A DNA stretch of 64,000 nt from an uncultured Clostridiaceae bacterium (GCA_964477445.1 CAYZED010000004.1:16180-80179); one strand, 5' to 3'. Shown: positions 1,415 through 47,352, counted from the first letter of the stretch. Numbers and translations: made by a program. Notes: generated from the letters alone by a model not told the origin.

Positions 1415-4400
1415 TCAAACCCAAATCTCATCTGAGTGCCTAAAAAAGTATAAACATTTAGAATCTACCCGCTCTTTTGTAACTTTTTCAACTGCTCTTT
1501 TATACCATTCAAGCTGAACTCTATAACTATTTGCAATTTTTTCAACTGCTCCTTTTTCATAATAGTCTGTTTTGTAATCTAAAAGTATCCATTTCCCTTT
1601 TTCAAAGAACATACAGTCAATTATTCCTTGGAGTAAGGTTTCAGCATTTTTAGGCGAATCTGGATACCCCGCTTCTTTTGCTGGAATCATAATCTTGAAA
1701 GGTGCTTCTCTTAAAACGGTTTGACTATTTCTAATTCTTTTGCAAACATCTGATCTCAAAAAATTCTGAATCCAATCTATGTTTATTTCTTTTAAATCAC
1801 TTTCCTTTATCATTTCTCTTGATACTAAGCTATTGATAAAAGTAATTACGTTTTCTGGATCTGAATTGAAATCTAACATTTGCATAACAAAGTGCATTAA
1901 AGTTCCTTTTTCGGCAGAATTCAATCTTCTCTCAGATGACAAAAAAGTTGGTCTTTGTTCAAATTTCAATATTGGATTAATTGATTTATCTATTTCTAAA
2001 CTATCTTTATAGTTTTCAAATTCTAAAACCGAAGAATCATTTTTTTTCTTCTTTAGAGCTGTTACTGATATTTTCAATGGCCTTATTGTTTCTCCAATTT
2101 CCGGATAACTAAAATCTAATCTTCTGTCCACTTCCGTTTTTAAGAGCTCATAAGTACTAATATTCCCTTTTTCTTTTTCATTCTCATTTTCAATATTTTC
2201 ATTATTTTCTCTGTAAGCATAACTTATTTCATTATTTGCTATTACGTTTGCTTCCTCATGGCTATCATTTTGATTAATTTGCTCATCTCGATCATTTTTT
2301 TCTTCGCTTAAAGCACTTTCAACTTTTTCTATTATTTTGTAATTAGCATTATTATTCGCAACGTAAAGTAATAACCAGTCAAAAAAACTGTTTGAGTTCA
2401 AGCAAGCATATTCTGATATTTTTCCAATTAGTGTTGTTGTAGTGCTTTTTGCAATTTTATCATTAATTTTTTTCCCTGAACCTAAAATTATGAGTTTTTC
2501 TTTTGCTCTAGTAAGTGCTACATACATAATTCGCATTTCTTCAGATAAACTCTCACGTTTTATCTCGTATTTGATACTCTCTTTAACTATAGAGGAGTAT
2601 TTATAATTTTCTTCAATTCTAAATATGTCCGCACCAAATCCTAATTTACCATGAATTAGTAAGTTTGCTAGTGTATCTCGTCTATTGAACCGTTTCGATG
2701 TGTTTGCAAATATCACAATCGGGTATTCGAGCCCCTTACTCTTATGCACGCTCATAACAGAAACAATATTTTGTCCATGTCCACTAAGCTTTGCTTTGTC
2801 AGAGCCAATTTCTTTGTCAATTTGTTTTTCAAGGTATTTTACAAAGTTGAAAAGACCTTTATAACTTGTTTTCTCATAAAGTGCTGCCTTTTCATACATA
2901 AGTCTAAGATTGGCTTGTCTTTGTTTACCTTTTGGCAAAACAGTTGCAAAGTTGTACAAATTTGTCTCTTCATATAGCCACCACAATAACTTGTCCGACG
3001 ACAGATATTTCGATTCGCCTCGCCATTTATCTATTCTTTCTGTAAATTTTAAGCATTTTTCAGCAAGTAAGCTATCTTCATTTAACGATTCTAGGACTAC
3101 TAATTCATAAAAATTCATTTTTGTAATTTTTTGTTTGAATGTTATTGTATCTCGACTACGCAAAAGAACAAGTTCACTATCAGTAAAACCGAAAATAAAA
3201 GATCTCAAAACTGCTAAAATGGGAATGTCCTGAAGTGGATTGTCTAATATTTTTAGAAGTGAAAATACCAAAGATATCTCTAAACTCTCAAAATAACCTC
3301 CATCAACTTCCATATAGAATGGAATATCCTTTTTTATAAAAGATTCTTCCAACCTCTTATTAAACCCGCGTGGCGATCTCATCAGCACCGCAATATCTGA
3401 ATACTTAGCAGGTCTATATGAATTCGACTTATTATCCCAGACAGGGTATCCCTCATTAATTAATTCTGTAATAATCTTTGCAATATATTCGCTCTCTTCG
3501 TTAGTTATATCGTTTTTTTCTTCTATTCCATTTGACTTATTTATTTTATATTCATTACCTATTTCACTTTCTTCACTTTCAGGTTTTTCGCTTTCTATAA
3601 AATGAATTTCAACCCCTGGCTCTTTTTTAACGAATGATTTAGTCGATTTGATCTTCGAATACTCTTTCGGAAAAAGTGGATAATAGTTAGCACCAAATTT
3701 AAGTACCTCATCACCAGAGTAATCTATATCGCCTATTTTTTCGCTCATTATGGCGTTCATTATTGAATTAATTCCTTCAACTACTTCAATTCTACTTCTG
3801 AAGTTTTTGTTCAAAACTATAAGCCTTTCAGGCGCGCTTTCATCTTTACTAAATGACTTCATTTTACCTTTGAAAAGACTTGGATCTGCCTTTCTAAAGG
3901 CATAAATACTCTGTTTTAAATCCCCAACCATAAAAATATTTTGCTCTGGTTTAATCCTTCTAACCCTCGAAACGGATAAAATTACTTCCTCTTGGACAAA
4001 ATTAGAATCTTGATACTCATCAACATAAATCTCCTCGAATTGATTCCTATATTTTTCAGCTGCTAAGTTTTTCGAGCTGTCATAAAAAATCGTCAATGCC
4101 ATGTGTTCCATATCACTGTAATCAATAACGTTTAGATTCTTTTTTTTGTTTGTAAATTTTTTGTAAAAGACTTTTGTTAATTCGACTATATCACAACTAT
4201 GTTTAGCCACTTCATTCATTTCTGAAAAAAGCTCTTCACTGGATGCATAAAAGAAATTTTCGCTAATTGATTTTAGTTCTTTTTTATACAAATTCCTAAT
4301 TTCAACGACTCGTTCTTTAAGGTCGGAAGGAGCATTTTTCACAGGTTTTAGTCGATCAAAACTAATATCTTTTATTAAATCTCTAATATCGTCGAATTTT

Positions 4401-43320: not shown

Positions 43321-44478
43321 CTATGAAATTGTATAAACTATTTTCCCGTCGATTATTGTTTTTTCTACATTCGCCTGAAGATCAAAGGGATGTCTATCCC
43401 ATATAACCAAGTCAGCGTCTTTTCCCACTTCTAGACTTCCAATTCTATCGCTAACACCAAGTATTTCAGCCGCATTTATCGTTATGCATTTAAGAGCTTC
43501 CATTTCTTCGAGTCCTGATTTAAATGATAGCGCGGCACACATTGCAAGATATTCCAGCGGAATTACAGGACTGTCTGTCATTATGGCTATTTTAACGCCT
43601 GCATCAAATAATACTTTAGGCGTTTTGAATGTTTTATTATTTAACTCAAATTTTGACTTGCTTCCAAAACTCGGTCCAACTATCGCAGGCAACCCTTCTT
43701 TTGATATTTGATCTGCTATTAGATGTCCTTCTGTACAATGATCAAGTGTTAGTTTTACACCAAATTCTTTCGCTATTCTTATCGAAGTGAAAATATCATC
43801 AGTTCTATGAGCATGCGCCTTCAATGGAATTTCTTTATTAATGACTGGCAACATTGCTTCAAGTTTCATATCCCATGCAGGTAGTTTCGTTGCATCATCG
43901 CCTGCAGCATTGATTTTGTTTTTATATTCAATGGTTTTTGATAATAATTCTCTTAATTTCGAAGCTGTTCCCATTCTAGTGCTTGGCATCTGTTTTTTTT
44001 CATTATAACAACGCTTTGGATTTTCCCCAAATGCGCATTTCATTGCTGAATCATTCTTTATAATCATATCGTCGACACGATTCCCAAAAAGTTTAATTAT
44101 TGAAAACGTTCCACCTACTACATTAGCACTTCCAGGCCCTGTGCAAGCTGTCGTAACGCCTCCGGCCAATGCTAAAGCAAATGCTTCGTCGCGAGGATTT
44201 ACCCCGTCAATCCCCCTTAAGTGAGGAGTAATAGGGTCTGTAATTTCATTAACATCATTACCTTCGAAACCAATACCTTCTTCCATCATACCAATATGAC
44301 AATGAGCATCTATAAATCCCGGAAAAACAAATTTACCCTCAGCATCAATGACCTCAACATTCAAAGGTTGAATTAAATCATTCCCAATTTCTTTGATTTT
44401 GCCATTTTCAATCAAAATACTTCCGTTTTCAATAATCCTGTCTGCCATTGTGTAAATTTTTGCGTTTTTTATAAACAT
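43321..44478 (-). CDS. metal-dependent amidohydrolase family protein
   Basis: 385 aa. PGFIDAHCHIGM HxH motif, later H and D ligands (DHCTEG, GKDADLVIWD). Confidence 0.8.
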   Translation of the reverse strand: MFIKNAKIYTMADRIIENGSILIENGKIKEIGNDLIQPLNVEVIDAEGKFVFPGFIDAHCHIGMMEEGIGFEGNDVNEITDPITPHLRGIDGVNPRDEAFALALAGGVTTACTGPGSANVVGGTFSIIKLFGNRVDDMIIKNDSAMKCAFGENPKRCYNEKKQMPSTRMGTASKLRELLSKTIEYKNKINAAGDDATKLPAWDMKLEAMLPVINKEIPLKAHAHRTDDIFTSIRIAKEFGVKLTLDHCTEGHLIADQISKEGLPAIVGPSFGSKSKFELNNKTFKTPKVLFDAGVKIAIMTDSPVIPLEYLAMCAALSFKSGLEEMEALKCITINAAEILGVSDRIGSLEVGKDADLVIWDRHPFDLQANVEKTIIDGKIVYTIS

Positions 44479-44570
44479 ACCATTTCTCCTCCAAAAAATT
44501 AAATAAATTAATACGATTACTATAATATTCTTACCAAAATAATTATATCATACATATACAATTACAATAT

Positions 44571-44599
44571 AAAAAAACCACCGACAAAACTATCGGTGG
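44571..44599 (-). terminator. intrinsic terminator after corA
   Basis: Minus strand CCACCGA-loop-TCGGTGG followed by T7. Confidence 0.75.
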
Positions 44600-44618
44600 A
44601 ATAATGAATATATTTGAT

Positions 44619-45599
44619 CTAGAACCACTTGTTTTTCTTTATGAATAGCATTACACCTATTATCGAAGTCGGTATAAATATCATCCCAAAAACTATCCAA
44701 AAGGCTTGCGGATAAGTATGCATCGGAATGCCCTGTACATTCATAGAAAAAAGGCCACTTACCAATATCATAGGCAAAATTGTTACCTGTATAATTGTAA
44801 ATGTTCTCATCAATCCATTCATTGTGTGGTTTGTAAGAGAAGTAAAAGTATTATCAGCTGATTCAATGACTTCTTTGTAATTCTCGAGCATATCCCAAAT
44901 CTTTTCTATTCTATCTGTTATATCATCAAAATATATATCCATATCTTCAGGCAAATATTTTTTTATTATACGTTCAAGCATTAATATAACTGGCCTCAGC
45001 GGCTTAATTACGCTGCGATAATTAATAATCTGCATTTTCGCTCGAGAAATCGTTTCAAGCATTTTTTTTGATCTGTCCGAGAAAACTTGCTTATTTATGT
45101 CATTAACTATATAGCCGATTTTGTCAATAATTGGGAAGCAATAGTCAAACAATGATTTAGTGATTTCATAAAGTAGCAGAGCCGATCCATTTTCCATGTA
45201 TTCTTTTCTTGCTTCTTCATCTGTATAGCAAAGTTTTGCAAGTTCAGTGATTGGCTTAAGTTCGCCCTCATGGAGAGTAACAAGATAGTCTGGCCCAATA
45301 AATATATCTATTTCTTCCGTATCTAATCTCACAAGTTCTTTTCTGTACCGAGGTAAGTGTAGGACGATAAAGCTATAATCTTCATAAGAATCGACTTTGG
45401 ATCTCTGATGTTCTGTCATACAGTCTTCCAGAAGTAGATCATGAAAATCATACATGTCCTTCAACATCTTGATTTCTTTATTTGTTGGCTTAATAATGTC
45501 AATCCACTTCAGTCCATTAAATTCAATAATCTTGACATCTCCGGTAATTTTTTTTATCTTACCGAAGTATTTCTTTTCATTTCCGAATGGCAATACCAT
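44619..45599 (-). CDS. corA: CorA-family divalent-cation (Mg2+/Co2+) channel with SMN in place of the GMN signature
   Basis: 326 aa. Cytoplasmic funnel domain plus two C-terminal TM helices. The TM1 end reads GLFSMNVQGIP (codons TCT ATG AAT at 44747..44739). KKNKWF C-terminus. M-box riboswitch upstream. Confidence 0.85.
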   Translation of the reverse strand: MVLPFGNEKKYFGKIKKITGDVKIIEFNGLKWIDIIKPTNKEIKMLKDMYDFHDLLLEDCMTEHQRSKVDSYEDYSFIVLHLPRYRKELVRLDTEEIDIFIGPDYLVTLHEGELKPITELAKLCYTDEEARKEYMENGSALLLYEITKSLFDYCFPIIDKIGYIVNDINKQVFSDRSKKMLETISRAKMQIINYRSVIKPLRPVILMLERIIKKYLPEDMDIYFDDITDRIEKIWDMLENYKEVIESADNTFTSLTNHTMNGLMRTFTIIQVTILPMILVSGLFSMNVQGIPMHTYPQAFWIVFGMIFIPTSIIGVMLFIKKNKWF

Positions 45600-45604
45600 A
45601 AATA

Positions 45605-45629
45605 TTCCTCCTTTTTTTCAAGGAGAACC
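45605..45629 (-). promoter_or_regulatory. SD-sequestering hairpin at the corA start
   Basis: Minus-strand UUCUCCUU-GAAAAA-AAGGAGGA: 8 bp including one G-U, covering the whole corA SD (AGGAGG). The ATG is 7 nt further on. Confidence 0.5.
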
Positions 45630-45721
45630 TATATTGAAGAAAATCTACAATAGAAAATGGTCTCCCTGAGTAATATTAATTTTTTTATACAATATGAGTT
45701 TGGGTAGGGGTCACTGTCCAT
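45629..45721 (-). CDS. candidate 30-codon leader ORF (MDSDPYPNSYCIKKLILLRETIFYCRFSSI)
   Basis: Below the ORF-track cut-off. SD AAGGAGG lies 9 nt upstream of the ATG (45721..45719). The TAG stop (45631..45629) abuts the 5' arm of the corA SD-sequestering hairpin. Confidence 0.4.
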   Translation of the reverse strand: MDSDPYPNSYCIKKLILLRETIFYCRFSSI

Positions 45722-45753
45722 TGAGATTCGCCTCCTTAATTTAAGAATTTGCT

Positions 45754-45789
45754 TATTCAGACAAATAGATATATCCTTTTGTCTGAATA
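45754..45789 (-). other. perfect 12-bp inverted repeat (TATTCAGACAAA / TTTGTCTGAATA) with 12-nt loop
   Basis: Direct reading. Lies in the corA leader between the tandem repeats and the leader-ORF SD. Confidence 0.85.
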
Positions 45790-45802
45790 GAATCGAAACT
45801 AC

Positions 45803-45990
45803 GTCACTCCGACAACAAAAAACCCGGTTATTTTGTCACTCTGACAATAAAAAACCCGGTTATCGTCACGTTGACAACAAAAAACCGGTTATTTTATTGT
45901 TCGTGAACAATAAAAAACCTGGTTATTTTTGTCGATATAAACGACAAAAAAACCTGGTTATTTTTGTCGATATAAACGACAAAAAAACCT
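45803..45990 (-). repeat. ~5.7 tandem 30-35 bp hairpin-forming repeats in the corA leader
   Basis: Units at 45803-45834, 45835-45864, 45865-45895, 45896-45930, 45931-45965 and 45966-~45990. Conserved core AAAAAACC(N)GGTTATTTT plus a variable palindromic core. The last two units are identical. Confidence 0.9.
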
Positions 45991-46018
45991 GCATCAAAAA
46001 CATGAACTTGATGAAGGT
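45981..46018 (-). terminator. M-box expression-platform intrinsic terminator
   Basis: Minus strand CCUUCAUCAA-loop-UUGAUGCAGG (9/10 paired) followed by U7, starting 16 nt after the aptamer P1 3' strand. Confidence 0.7.
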
Positions 46019-46033
46019 ATTATTACAATACTT

Positions 46034-46179
46034 TCTCGTTCAAGTTTTGACTCTGCAAGGCAATGAAGTTGCATTAGGTTAAACCTTCTTTGTTCGGTAA
46101 AACCTGCTGACCAGTTCAGAATGTTTCCATTCTTTTACGGCAGCAACCCGTATCCTTGTAGTAATCTCACCTACCGAGA
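46034..46179 (-). promoter_or_regulatory. M-box (ykoK-leader) Mg2+ riboswitch aptamer
   Basis: The minus strand reads UCUCGGUAGGUGAG..GGAUACGGGUUGCUGCCGUAAAAG..CUGGUCAGCAGG..AAGGUUUAACCUAAUGCAACU..GAGUCAAAACUUGAACGAGA. This is collinear with the B. subtilis mgtE M-box landmarks (GUUAGGUGAG, UACG, CUGCUGCC, GGUCAACAG, UAAUGCAGCU, GCUAAAGCUCUACGA). P1 is UCUCG/CGAGA. Confidence 0.85.
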
Positions 46180-46204
46180 TATTTTAAATTTTATTTCACT
46201 TCCC

Positions 46205-46233
46205 ATGCTACTAGCATTCTTCATATATGTCAA
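46205..46233 (-). promoter_or_regulatory. candidate promoter for the M-box/corA transcript (TTGACA-17-TAGCAT)
   Basis: On the minus strand: -35 TTGACA (46233..46228), 17-nt spacer, -10 TAGCAT (46210..46205). Lies ~25 nt upstream of the aptamer. Confidence 0.4.
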
Positions 46234-46245
46234 ATGGTTTTTTGA

Positions 46246-46536
46246 CTACTCGAGTGATTTAATTTGCAAATAATAATTCGTCATTCTTTTGAAGGATTCC
46301 GTTTTTGATGAAATTCCATCAATCGTCTGGCTAATGTTTTTTACTTCGCGAGTTGTAATCTCAATTATGTTTTGTTTCGCTTCAGAAAGAAGCGTATTTT
46401 TAGTCTTAATTGCAATATATCCAGTAACCGAAAAATACATAATTAAAAGTGTTACTTCAATTATAAGAATAGGTAATAACGCTGCACGGATATATTCACT
46501 GTAAACAATATCCTTCAAGGATTTTAACTTCTTCAT
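46246..46536 (-). pseudogene. 96-codon ORF resembling only the N-terminal TM/Cache-like start of a membrane sensor (kinase/MCP/GGDEF); probable truncated remnant
   Basis: MKKLKSLKDIVYSEYIRAALLPILIIEVTLLIMYF...LLSEAKQNIIEITTREVKNISQTI looks like the first ~95 residues of 500-700-aa sensors. The frame stops 67 nt before the M-box, with no output domain. Confidence 0.3.
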
Positions 46537-46581
46537 GTCACACTTCTTACCCTGCAGTTTTTTTCTCTATATCAATATTTT

Positions 46582-46615
46582 AAAACAAAAGCTCGCCAAT
46601 TTTCACTGGCGAGCT
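46582..46615 (-). terminator. intrinsic terminator after the racemase gene
   Basis: Minus strand AGCUCGCCA-loop-UGGCGAGCU (9 bp) followed by UUUUGUUUU. Confidence 0.8.
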
Positions 46616-46641
46616 AAAACTTAAAGATTTTTTGTTCAAAT

Positions 46642-47352
46642 TCATTGTTTTCCCAACTCCACACATTTTTTTGCTAATATCATCGTTGGGTCAACGAAAT
46701 TTCCTTTTGCATTAATGAGCTCTGCAATAAGAGGAATTTCTGTGCATCCTAGAATTACTGGCATTTGTAATGGTCCTGAAGATACTGACATCTCTGTTTT
46801 TTCATAAGAATATACTTCTATTAATTTCTCGAATTCTTCTTTTTTAACTGACGATTTTCCACTCTTATAATCATAAATCCACTTCATAACGATTTCTTTG
46901 TCAAGGTTACTTGGTTCAATAATTTCAAGTCCGTGTACTTCAAAAACTTTTTTGTAAATTCCCGAATTATAGGTTCCAGTGGTGGCAAGAAGTAAAAGCT
47001 TAAAACAATCGGGGTATTCTGATCTAATAGTTTTTGCGGTTTCTGCAATCATATTAATTATGTTAATATTTGTGCATTTCTTTAAGTCGTCATAAAAATA
47101 GTGTGCCGTATTACAAGGTATAGCAACATATTTAGCTCCAGCTACCTCTAATCTAAGAAGCGATTTTATCATTTCAGGTCTCGGATCTTCTCCATTCCCA
47201 TTTATATATGCCGATCTATCTGGAATACTTGTATTACTATCAATAAAAACGTGTATATGATCTTGATCTTTTTTTGCGTCTGTATTCTTAATAATTTTTT
47301 TGTATAAATCATTAGTTGCCTCAGGCCCCATTCCCCCTAATATACCTATCAA
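46642..47352 (-). CDS. aspartate/glutamate-family amino-acid racemase (aspartate racemase-like)
   Basis: 236 aa. GILGGMGPEAT opening and both catalytic Cys contexts (AIPCNTAH, LGCTEIP). Confidence 0.8.
   Translation of the reverse strand: MIGILGGMGPEATNDLYKKIIKNTDAKKDQDHIHVFIDSNTSIPDRSAYINGNGEDPRPEMIKSLLRLEVAGAKYVAIPCNTAHYFYDDLKKCTNINIINMIAETAKTIRSEYPDCFKLLLLATTGTYNSGIYKKVFEVHGLEIIEPSNLDKEIVMKWIYDYKSGKSSVKKEEFEKLIEVYSYEKTEMSVSSGPLQMPVILGCTEIPLIAELINAKGNFVDPTMILAKKCVELGKQ

Follow-up and report, generated by a model that had tools for sequence, protein, structure and literature searches.

A 64,000-nucleotide (nt) stretch of DNA from an uncultured Clostridiaceae bacterium (GCA_964477445.1 CAYZED010000004.1:16180-80179), hereafter the window, carries a gene of the corA divalent-cation channel family preceded by a 30-codon leader open reading frame (ORF; also upstream ORF, uORF). 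This uORF is conserved in front of corA in related genomes, and the leader RNA has two alternative folds, both of which covary and which exclude each other. That a translated, conserved uORF switch controls corA we regard as very probable. As its mode of action we propose an ermC-style translational attenuator with a Mg2+-linked signal, in which dwelling of the ribosome on an N-terminus resembling that of the leader peptide MgtL would be the trigger; folding models and sequence comparison give this fuller reading about even chances.

To our knowledge, Mg2+ sensing by leader peptides (MgtL, CorL) is documented only in Enterobacteria, where it acts via Rho, and Firmicutes are thought to depend on the M-box riboswitch. 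A first-pass annotation of the window, made from the sequence by a model, had supposed that the arrangement was undescribed in Firmicutes, and we found no prior description of a Firmicute corA leader peptide in the open-access literature.

Results

A conserved leader open reading frame precedes corA

The leader ORF and the RNA elements around it are located as follows, with SD for Shine-Dalgarno sequence, MFE for minimum free energy and CM for covariance model.

45737-45731, minus strand: SD of the leader ORF, AAGGAGG, 9 nt 5' of the ATG
45734-45702, minus strand: helix P1, 5' strand (part of the leader SD, start codon, codons 1-3 and 4, CC of the Pro codons)
45721-45629, minus strand: leader ORF (uORF), 30 codons plus TAG, MDSDPYPNSYCIKKLILLRETIFYCRFSSI (from translation; homologues in relatives)
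45718-45701, minus strand: codons 2-7, D-S-D-P-Y-P, Asp/Pro-rich N-terminal motif, proposed pause or drop-off site
45669-45659, minus strand: element 1, UCAGGGAGACC, an SD-like anti-anti-SD within codons 18-21
45666-45636, minus strand: helix P1, 3' strand, including GGGAG of element 1 (window MFE; CM alignment)
45631-45629, minus strand: TAG stop of the leader ORF, adjoining GGUUCUCCUU
45629-45618, minus strand: element 2, the anti-SD GGUUCUCCUUGA, core UUCUCCUU at 45627-45620; its first base is the last base of the uORF stop
45613-45606, minus strand: element 3, the corA SD AAGGAGGA, predicted to pair with element 2 in the OFF state
45599-44619, minus strand: corA-family divalent-cation channel gene, 326 amino acids (Pfam PF01544, 193.7 bits)

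The first-pass annotation had described a 30-codon ORF with a strong AAGGAGG SD, 3' of a riboswitch and repeats, with an M-D-x-D-P-x-P start and a TAG directly abutting an anti-SD element. All of these features were found in place, and the N-terminus reads MDSDPYP. Taken singly, the window ORF is not significant, i.e., an ORF of this length is open in about 11% of dinucleotide shuffles, and the question of chance is therefore settled by conservation across loci. A CorA-protein scan with one genome per species listed 41 loci, of which 32 corA orthologues were usable for upstream analysis. All genome and metagenome counts refer to listed matches and are hence lower bounds on the taxonomic range. 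A homologous leader ORF was present upstream of corA at 21 of the 32 loci, in Clostridium (C. estertheticum, C. frigoriphilum, C. paridis, Clostridium sp. LS), Ruminiclostridium sufflavum and many Bacillota metagenome-assembled genomes. These leaders have a strong SD (usually AAGGUGGUGA), a GUG, AUG or UUG start 6-9 nt further 3' and 24-33 codons. A metagenome scan by SD-start pattern listed 20 matches; 13 were genuine leaders and seven were discarded as GC-rich chance matches. With the metagenome copies included, the ORF spans 24-37 codons, and the SD is kept 6-9 nt ahead of the start codon in all leaders.

In thirty leader copies, comprising 865 codons, frame 0 is free of stops, whereas frames +1 and +2 contain 73 and 88. 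Although relatives differ in nucleotide sequence, in length and, within the 3' half, even in frame, they keep the start, the SD and an open frame; loss of frame or start with the nucleotide sequence retained was what the first-pass annotation had said would speak against a functional ORF. The loci L050 (890-1033) and L057 (1850-1992) differ by 1 nt in the A-run before GGGAGG, which shifts the frame of the 3' half. The L057 leader ORF nevertheless stays open, spans element 1 and ends beyond rather than before the anti-SD. It is hence openness that is constrained, not the C-terminal peptide. From this pattern, we conclude that selection for a leader frame that is open and translated is strong.

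The downstream gene was corA wherever it could be read, including 11 of 11 metagenome leaders with readable downstream sequence. Among the loci listed, the module was found before no other gene, and CM matches elsewhere were weak (E>2). An exact look-up of ten leader peptides, that of the window included, in a 15-billion-protein collection returned none. An Rfam scan of 44000-47000 at E<=1 gave only the M-box and chance matches, none of them within 45600-45760.

The leader RNA is predicted to adopt two mutually exclusive folds

In essentially all 30 full-length leaders, the MFE fold consists of the long helix P1 and an anti-SD:SD hairpin. P1 pairs the start-codon region, codons 1-3 and the CCs of the Pro codons with the 3' half of the ORF, i.e., with element 1 and a conserved ACUCA. 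In the window hairpin, UUCUCCUU (45627-45620) pairs with AAGGAGGA (45613-45606) over 8 base pairs (bp) including one U.G, with the loop GAAAAA and an energy of -10.0 kcal/mol, occluding the corA SD in the way the first-pass annotation had described. A CCUCC-type motif lies 6-12 nt 5' of the corA SD in all leaders. The alternative ON helix pairs UCAGGGAGACC (45669-45659) with GG-U-UCUCCUUGA (45629-45618) over 11 bp with a one-base bulge; it had been annotated, with its GGAGACC strand, as a helix of 7 bp, which proved too short. For the window, the OFF MFE fold has -34.2 kcal/mol vs -17.0 kcal/mol for the ON fold. The anti-SD with two partners had thus been recognized from the start, whereas the third helix P1, the fourth segment and the OFF default had been overlooked. 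From these folds, the switch is predicted to comprise four RNA segments and to keep the corA SD sequestered by default in naked RNA.

Covariation was scored on CM alignments, with 500 shuffles and slid controls for each structure.

OFF fold (P1 and SD hairpin): 92.5% of cells paired; 13 of 22 pairs with double changes; score 0.392, reached in 0/500 shuffles; slid controls <=0.121
ON helix (element 1:anti-SD): 82.8% of cells paired; 10 of 11 pairs with double changes; score 0.390, reached in 0/500 shuffles; slid controls <=0.145
Anti-SD:SD hairpin (29 sequences): 91.9% paired; 1 of 6 pairs with double changes; score 0.142, reached in 335/500 shuffles; slid control 0.142

The anti-SD:SD hairpin does not covary because the SD cannot change. 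In the CM alignment of the P1 start-codon stem, 9 of 13 pairs were compensatory, e.g., UA/CG/AU and GC/AU at the base. Pairs between Pro codons and element 1 are mostly invariant C-G and are backed by conservation alone. RNAalifold on a MAFFT-only alignment of the Clostridium clade returned the same P1 fold with 7 compensatory pairs. The GGGAGG element stands in differing codon phases between clades, hence element 1 is an RNA element.

Two approaches were abandoned. A three-element, ON-default model came from folding only after codon 10 and was dropped once full-length folds showed pairing of the 5' half with element 1. MAFFT and RNAalifold on the 3' sub-region of all clades yielded 4 pairs only, with the anti-SD misaligned by 1-3 columns, and were replaced by the CM alignments.

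Most of the conserved positions could be accounted for by pairing, be it in P1 or in one of the two alternative helices. The element could accordingly be a switch made of RNA only, i.e., a thermosensor, a direct metal sensor or a target of a protein or small RNA, with an open frame that is incidental or tolerated; the window fold alone has z = -1.7. We consider this quite improbable. The frame is open in all copies despite stop-rich other frames and frameshifting indels, and a strong SD at the right spacing is conserved together with AUG, GUG or UUG starts. Moreover, the Tyr6 codon, which is unpaired in the fold, changes only synonymously among 12 unique sequences.

An outer helix between the leader SD (45729-45737) and the corA start region (45594-45605) was 86% pairable, G.U-rich and almost without covariation (alignment columns 2-12 with 279-289); the leader SD region, AAGGUGGUGA in most relatives, can pair with the U-rich corA start. 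A leader SD with GGUGG instead of GGAGG may avoid capture by the anti-SD. Element 1 often lies 4-8 nt before an AUG or GUG in any frame and thus looks like a decoy start (L003 2849-3000, L021 2851-3006). This look may reflect that element 1 and the corA SD region are both complementary to the same anti-SD flank.

Modelled ribosome position opens the corA SD at two stages

We modelled the walk of a ribosome along 30 leaders with a thermodynamic partition-function model that uses a 30-nt footprint and ignores kinetics. The median probability of an unpaired corA SD was 0.00 in naked RNA and 0.18-0.41 with the P-site on codons 1-8. It was about 0 on codons 12-24, came back up to 0.2-0.3 on the last codons and was 0.21 at the stop. 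In the window, the probability was 0.03 for naked RNA, rose to as much as 0.55 on codons 2-4, fell back to 0.03 in the middle of the ORF and stood at 0.54-0.74 with the ribosome at the stop. The modelled open interval coincides with the Asp/Glu/Pro-rich codons. Element 1 is at least 50 nt from the start, beyond reach of a ribosome paused at codon 7. The first-pass annotation had assumed that the ribosome's position on the leader decides whether the SD is free. The mutually exclusive helices fit this, and the model confines the opening mainly to P-site codons 1-8 or the last few codons.

We propose the following course of events. In naked mRNA (OFF), the 5' part of the leader (SD, start, codons 1-3, Pro CC) would pair with the 3' part as P1, the anti-SD past the leader stop would pair with the corA SD, and corA would stay untranslated. 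A ribosome lingering on the first ~8 codons (M-D-S-D-P-Y-P-N) would occupy the 5' strand of P1; the released GGGAG element would then take the anti-SD and the corA SD would become accessible (ON). A ribosome that runs over the GGGAG element would let the anti-SD:SD hairpin form again. Both a pause and an early drop-off, which would spare the reset caused by crossing element 1, would favour ON. Translation of corA would in this way report the dwell time, or the frequency of abortion, of ribosomes on the Asp/Glu/Pro-rich N-terminus. That ribosomes pause or drop off at the motif, which way regulation runs and that Mg2+ is the signal are each inferred.

The second modelled opening, at the stop codon, would suit simple positive translational coupling. 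Ribosomes initiating on the leader and terminating by the anti-SD would then melt inhibitory structures, corA translation would follow initiation on the leader, which P1 would mask, and the peptide sequence would be irrelevant. The leader stop indeed lies 0-26 nt 5' of the anti-SD (in L001, L057 and L052, slightly past it), and the SD opens in the model at termination, with the median of 0.21 and 0.74 in the window. P1 buries the leader start codon with strong covariation, and peptide selection is weak. However, coupling would make element 1 superfluous, yet the element 1:anti-SD helix covaries strongly, and the Asp/Glu/Pro composition is kept over three motif types. Moreover, at many loci 14-26 nt separate the stop from the anti-SD, and a terminating ribosome leaves the SD closed in the model. 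We therefore regard coupling as an unlikely account of the element.

The leader peptides share an Asp/Glu/Pro-rich N-terminus

In 31 leader peptides, the Asp/Glu/Pro fraction was 0.36 in residues 2-10 and 0.04 in the remaining peptide; residues 2-10 of 43 long window ORFs had 13%. Positions 2-7 contained on average 2.84 of these residues vs 0.79 in the 43 ORFs, with at least two in 31 of 31 leader peptides, and Pro5 was found in 28 of the 31. Three motif types, xxDPY[PH], xxxP[DEV][PL] and D[DGA]Y[PSL][AS]Q, keep a like composition. Variation in codons 4-7 among the 12 unique sequences of the D-P-Y-P clade is almost confined to third positions (entropy 0.00/0.20/0.78). These sequence comparisons make selection on the N-terminal peptide plausible, and they suggest codons 2-7 as a candidate pause site. 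Codons and RNA pairing are superimposed here, i.e., the Pro codons double as a strand of the switch helix.

The peptide as a whole could also be the product that matters, for example as an MgtR- or MgtS-like regulator of CorA in the membrane. Its 24-37 amino acids are typical for such micropeptides, and some copies have a C-terminal half of slightly hydrophobic character. Yet this half is not kept as amino acids: its frame changes between close relatives, the length varies and its conservation follows RNA pairing. A functional micropeptide hence appears very improbable, the least likely of all readings considered here.

The module is linked to corA with and without an M-box

Upstream of the leader ORF and downstream of corA, the window contains the following features.

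46233-46205, minus strand: promoter-like TTGACA-17-TAGCAT, 5' of the M-box (sequence scan)
46185-46028, minus strand: M-box (Mg2+) riboswitch aptamer, Rfam RF00380, full length, 112.3 bits vs gathering score 44, E=1.4e-25
45991-45803, minus strand: tandem hairpin array of 5-6 units (Tandem Repeats Finder periods 32 and 35; fold z = -8.1)
44599-44578, minus strand: corA terminator (terminator scan)

The M-box stands directly 5' of the leader in the window and six further loci (L009, L010, L012, L045, L046, L047); in L010 the order is promoter, M-box, intrinsic terminator, uORF and corA. In contrast, 14 of the 21 leader-bearing genome loci have no M-box, and the orthologous loci L005 and L031 have an M-box and no uORF. 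The module is hence autonomous. The M-box and leader ORF, which the first-pass annotation had combined into a two-layer sensor, do stand in series in the window, but this design is a feature of some lineages and not a part of the module. The uORF module seems, from these arrangements, to be interchangeable with or additive to the Mg2+ riboswitch. Where it lies behind the transcriptional M-box riboswitch, as in the window and the C. estertheticum-like lineage, the module would be the second of two serial checks.

Enterobacterial MgtL starts with MEPDPT, in which EPDP is the destabilizing motif (bioRxiv 10.1101/2021.02.02.429294), in agreement with the acidic/proline start that the first-pass annotation gave. 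The EPDP at the N-terminus makes translation abort, with a stronger effect when Mg2+ is low, and this switches the mgtA leader (bioRxiv 10.1101/2021.02.02.429294; PMC11282234). The corL uORF does likewise for enterobacterial corA via Rho (PMC11552253). By analogy with MgtL, the most likely signal for the module described here would be low cytoplasmic Mg2+, with drop-off no more likely than a pause at Pro. Clostridia and relatives may have independently evolved an MgtL-like device, in which an acidic/proline leader peptide and the Mg2+ dependence of the ribosome gate CorA via unmasking of the SD and not via Rho. We put this forward tentatively, as possible rather than probable.

The modelled mechanism needs only ribosome occupancy of codons 1-8, and the same attenuator might therefore answer to another signal, such as charging of Pro or Asp tRNA, activity of elongation factor P or an ABC-F protein, or general translation stress. 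MgtL itself responds to EttA too and its proline codons matter (PMC11282234); the 14 leader loci without an M-box fit such a signal as well. However, the leader is tied exclusively to corA where the downstream gene is readable, and the Mg2+-specific M-box repeatedly accompanies the module or stands in its place. Moreover, no genes of amino-acid biosynthesis or transport are linked to it. A signal other than Mg2+ is in our view rather unlikely.

Several observations weigh against the Mg2+-linked attenuator that we favour. Covariation was counted on structure-fitted alignments of related sequences. Little SD opening was modelled in six sequences. The window and a few further loci have their stop next to the anti-SD or past it, so that a terminating ribosome opens the SD (0.74 in the window) and the OFF effect of full translation is blurred. 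With respect to the peptide, Pro5 is missing from L008, L040 and the first copy in L001. The pN/pS ratios (nonsynonymous to synonymous polymorphism) of codons 2-10 were 0.44, 0.51 and 0.60 in frame vs 0.51-1.95 in shifted frames, a modest contrast in which the real frame ranks lowest or, in one clade, ties for lowest. Since element 1 is paired to the CC of the Pro codons, and a covarying stem takes in codons 2-3, which are purine-rich, the Asp/Glu/Pro composition could partly be a by-product of RNA constraint. With Pro codons paired and peptide selection modest, the MgtL-like chemistry is an analogy. Bulky residues were reported to counteract ribosome destabilization (bioRxiv 10.1101/2021.02.02.429294), and the motif found here contains Tyr.

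A further point of this kind concerns the gene product. The CorA protein scored 193.7 bits with Pfam PF01544 (cut-off 27) and 171.7 bits with TIGR00383, under the equivalog cut-off of 200.75, with a weak ZntB match. Near the C-terminal transmembrane helices, the signature reads F-S-M-N-V and not Y-G-M-N-F, both in the window protein and in the two L001 paralogs. With S-M-N for G-M-N and the score under the equivalog cut-off, the cation transported by this CorA clade is not certain. Among the listed loci, the closest CorA proteins have 81-82% identity and are found in Clostridium and Clostridiaceae genomes.

Comparison with known leader systems

The leader element resembles MgtL and CorL in signal logic and ermC in RNA mechanics and is a member of neither family. 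It shares with the MgtL/mgtA leader (Salmonella, E. coli; Rfam Mg_sensor) a short uORF before the gene of an Mg2+ importer, presumed in the present case, and acidic residues and prolines within the first 7 residues, MEPDPTP in MgtL vs MDSDPYP in the window. In both, progress of the ribosome picks between mutually exclusive RNA structures, and poor elongation on the uORF turns the transporter ON, as would be expected here. In contrast to MgtL, the element occurs in Bacillota and has no sequence or structure homology to it in the Rfam scan. Its uORF has 24-37 codons vs 17 in MgtL, and its Pro codons are within the switch helix. Its output is predicted to be sequestration of the SD, to which one clade may add an intrinsic terminator, whereas MgtL acts by Rho-dependent termination.

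A uORF in the corA leader is also found with corL in Enterobacteria ('corA motif' of Stav et al. 2019). The more it is translated, the less corA is expressed, and it responds to Mg2+ within the cell (PMC11552253); the 'corA motif' of Stav et al. 2019 is restricted to Gammaproteobacteria. Unlike the leader described here, corL is Rho-dependent, has few acidic or Pro residues and is unrelated in sequence.

The attenuators of ermC, ermB and cat in Firmicutes likewise have four segments and a leader ORF with its own SD directly 5' of the regulated gene. The SD of the regulated gene is paired in naked RNA, as predicted here, and a ribosome on segment 1 sets segment 2 free to withdraw segment 3 from the SD (segment 4). 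The inducer of erm and cat is, however, an antibiotic-bound ribosome, whereas here no drug is implied, the presumed pause is at the Asp/Glu/Pro motif and the regulated gene encodes an ion channel. M-box (RF00380) platforms also control Mg2+ transporters in Firmicutes, and they share one leader with the uORF in the window and the six related loci. The M-box aptamer, however, senses Mg2+ directly and acts on transcription, while the uORF module is separate and lies outside RF00380.

The element is thus a conserved, unannotated uORF switch before corA in at least two Bacillota families, which sometimes replaces an M-box and sometimes follows one. It would offer a test of whether ribosome destabilization or pausing on acidic/proline N-termini is a general Mg2+ sensor, and it would provide a natural tandem of riboswitch and uORF for two-stage control, i.e., of transcription and then of translation. 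It also represents a new, easily recognized family of small ORFs that gene callers have missed. If the proposed mechanism is true, ribosome-based Mg2+ sensing would have arisen convergently as a general strategy and would not be peculiar to Enterobacteria.

Further features of the window and of related loci

Between the M-box and the tandem repeat array, the minus strand of the window has a weak terminator-like stem, and the window fold has a predicted hairpin between the array and the leader-ORF SD. The repeat unit of 32-35 nt reads GGUUUUUU[A/G]UUGUC...GACAAAAUAACC, followed by GGGUUUUUU, the 5' arm of the following unit. Within the window it is almost confined to 45803-45991. The array resembles a chain of weak terminator-like hairpins between M-box and uORF. 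It is not found in related leaders, e.g., L010, and is context outside the conserved module.

The SD hairpin of the window was flagged as terminator-like with a weak tail (ATATTTATGG). In a Ruminiclostridium-like clade (L019 and, by eye, L020, L021, L025 and L032), the SD hairpin is GC-rich with 7-8 bp, and U5-U8 stand just before the corA start. The L019 hairpin (2969-2990, 7-bp stem and U7) was flagged as terminator-like, that of L025 was not. In this clade, the predicted OFF hairpin may also be an intrinsic terminator besides an SD trap.

Clostridium sp. bin.369 (L001) has tandem corA paralogs at 642-1744 and 2876-3978, and a separate leader uORF precedes each; in the first leader, MDDYLAQDY..., Leu takes the place of Pro5. 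The L001 M-box at 1965-2121 is followed by short ORFs that resemble the C-terminus of a P-type Mg2+ ATPase, by eye an apparent mgtA pseudogene remnant.

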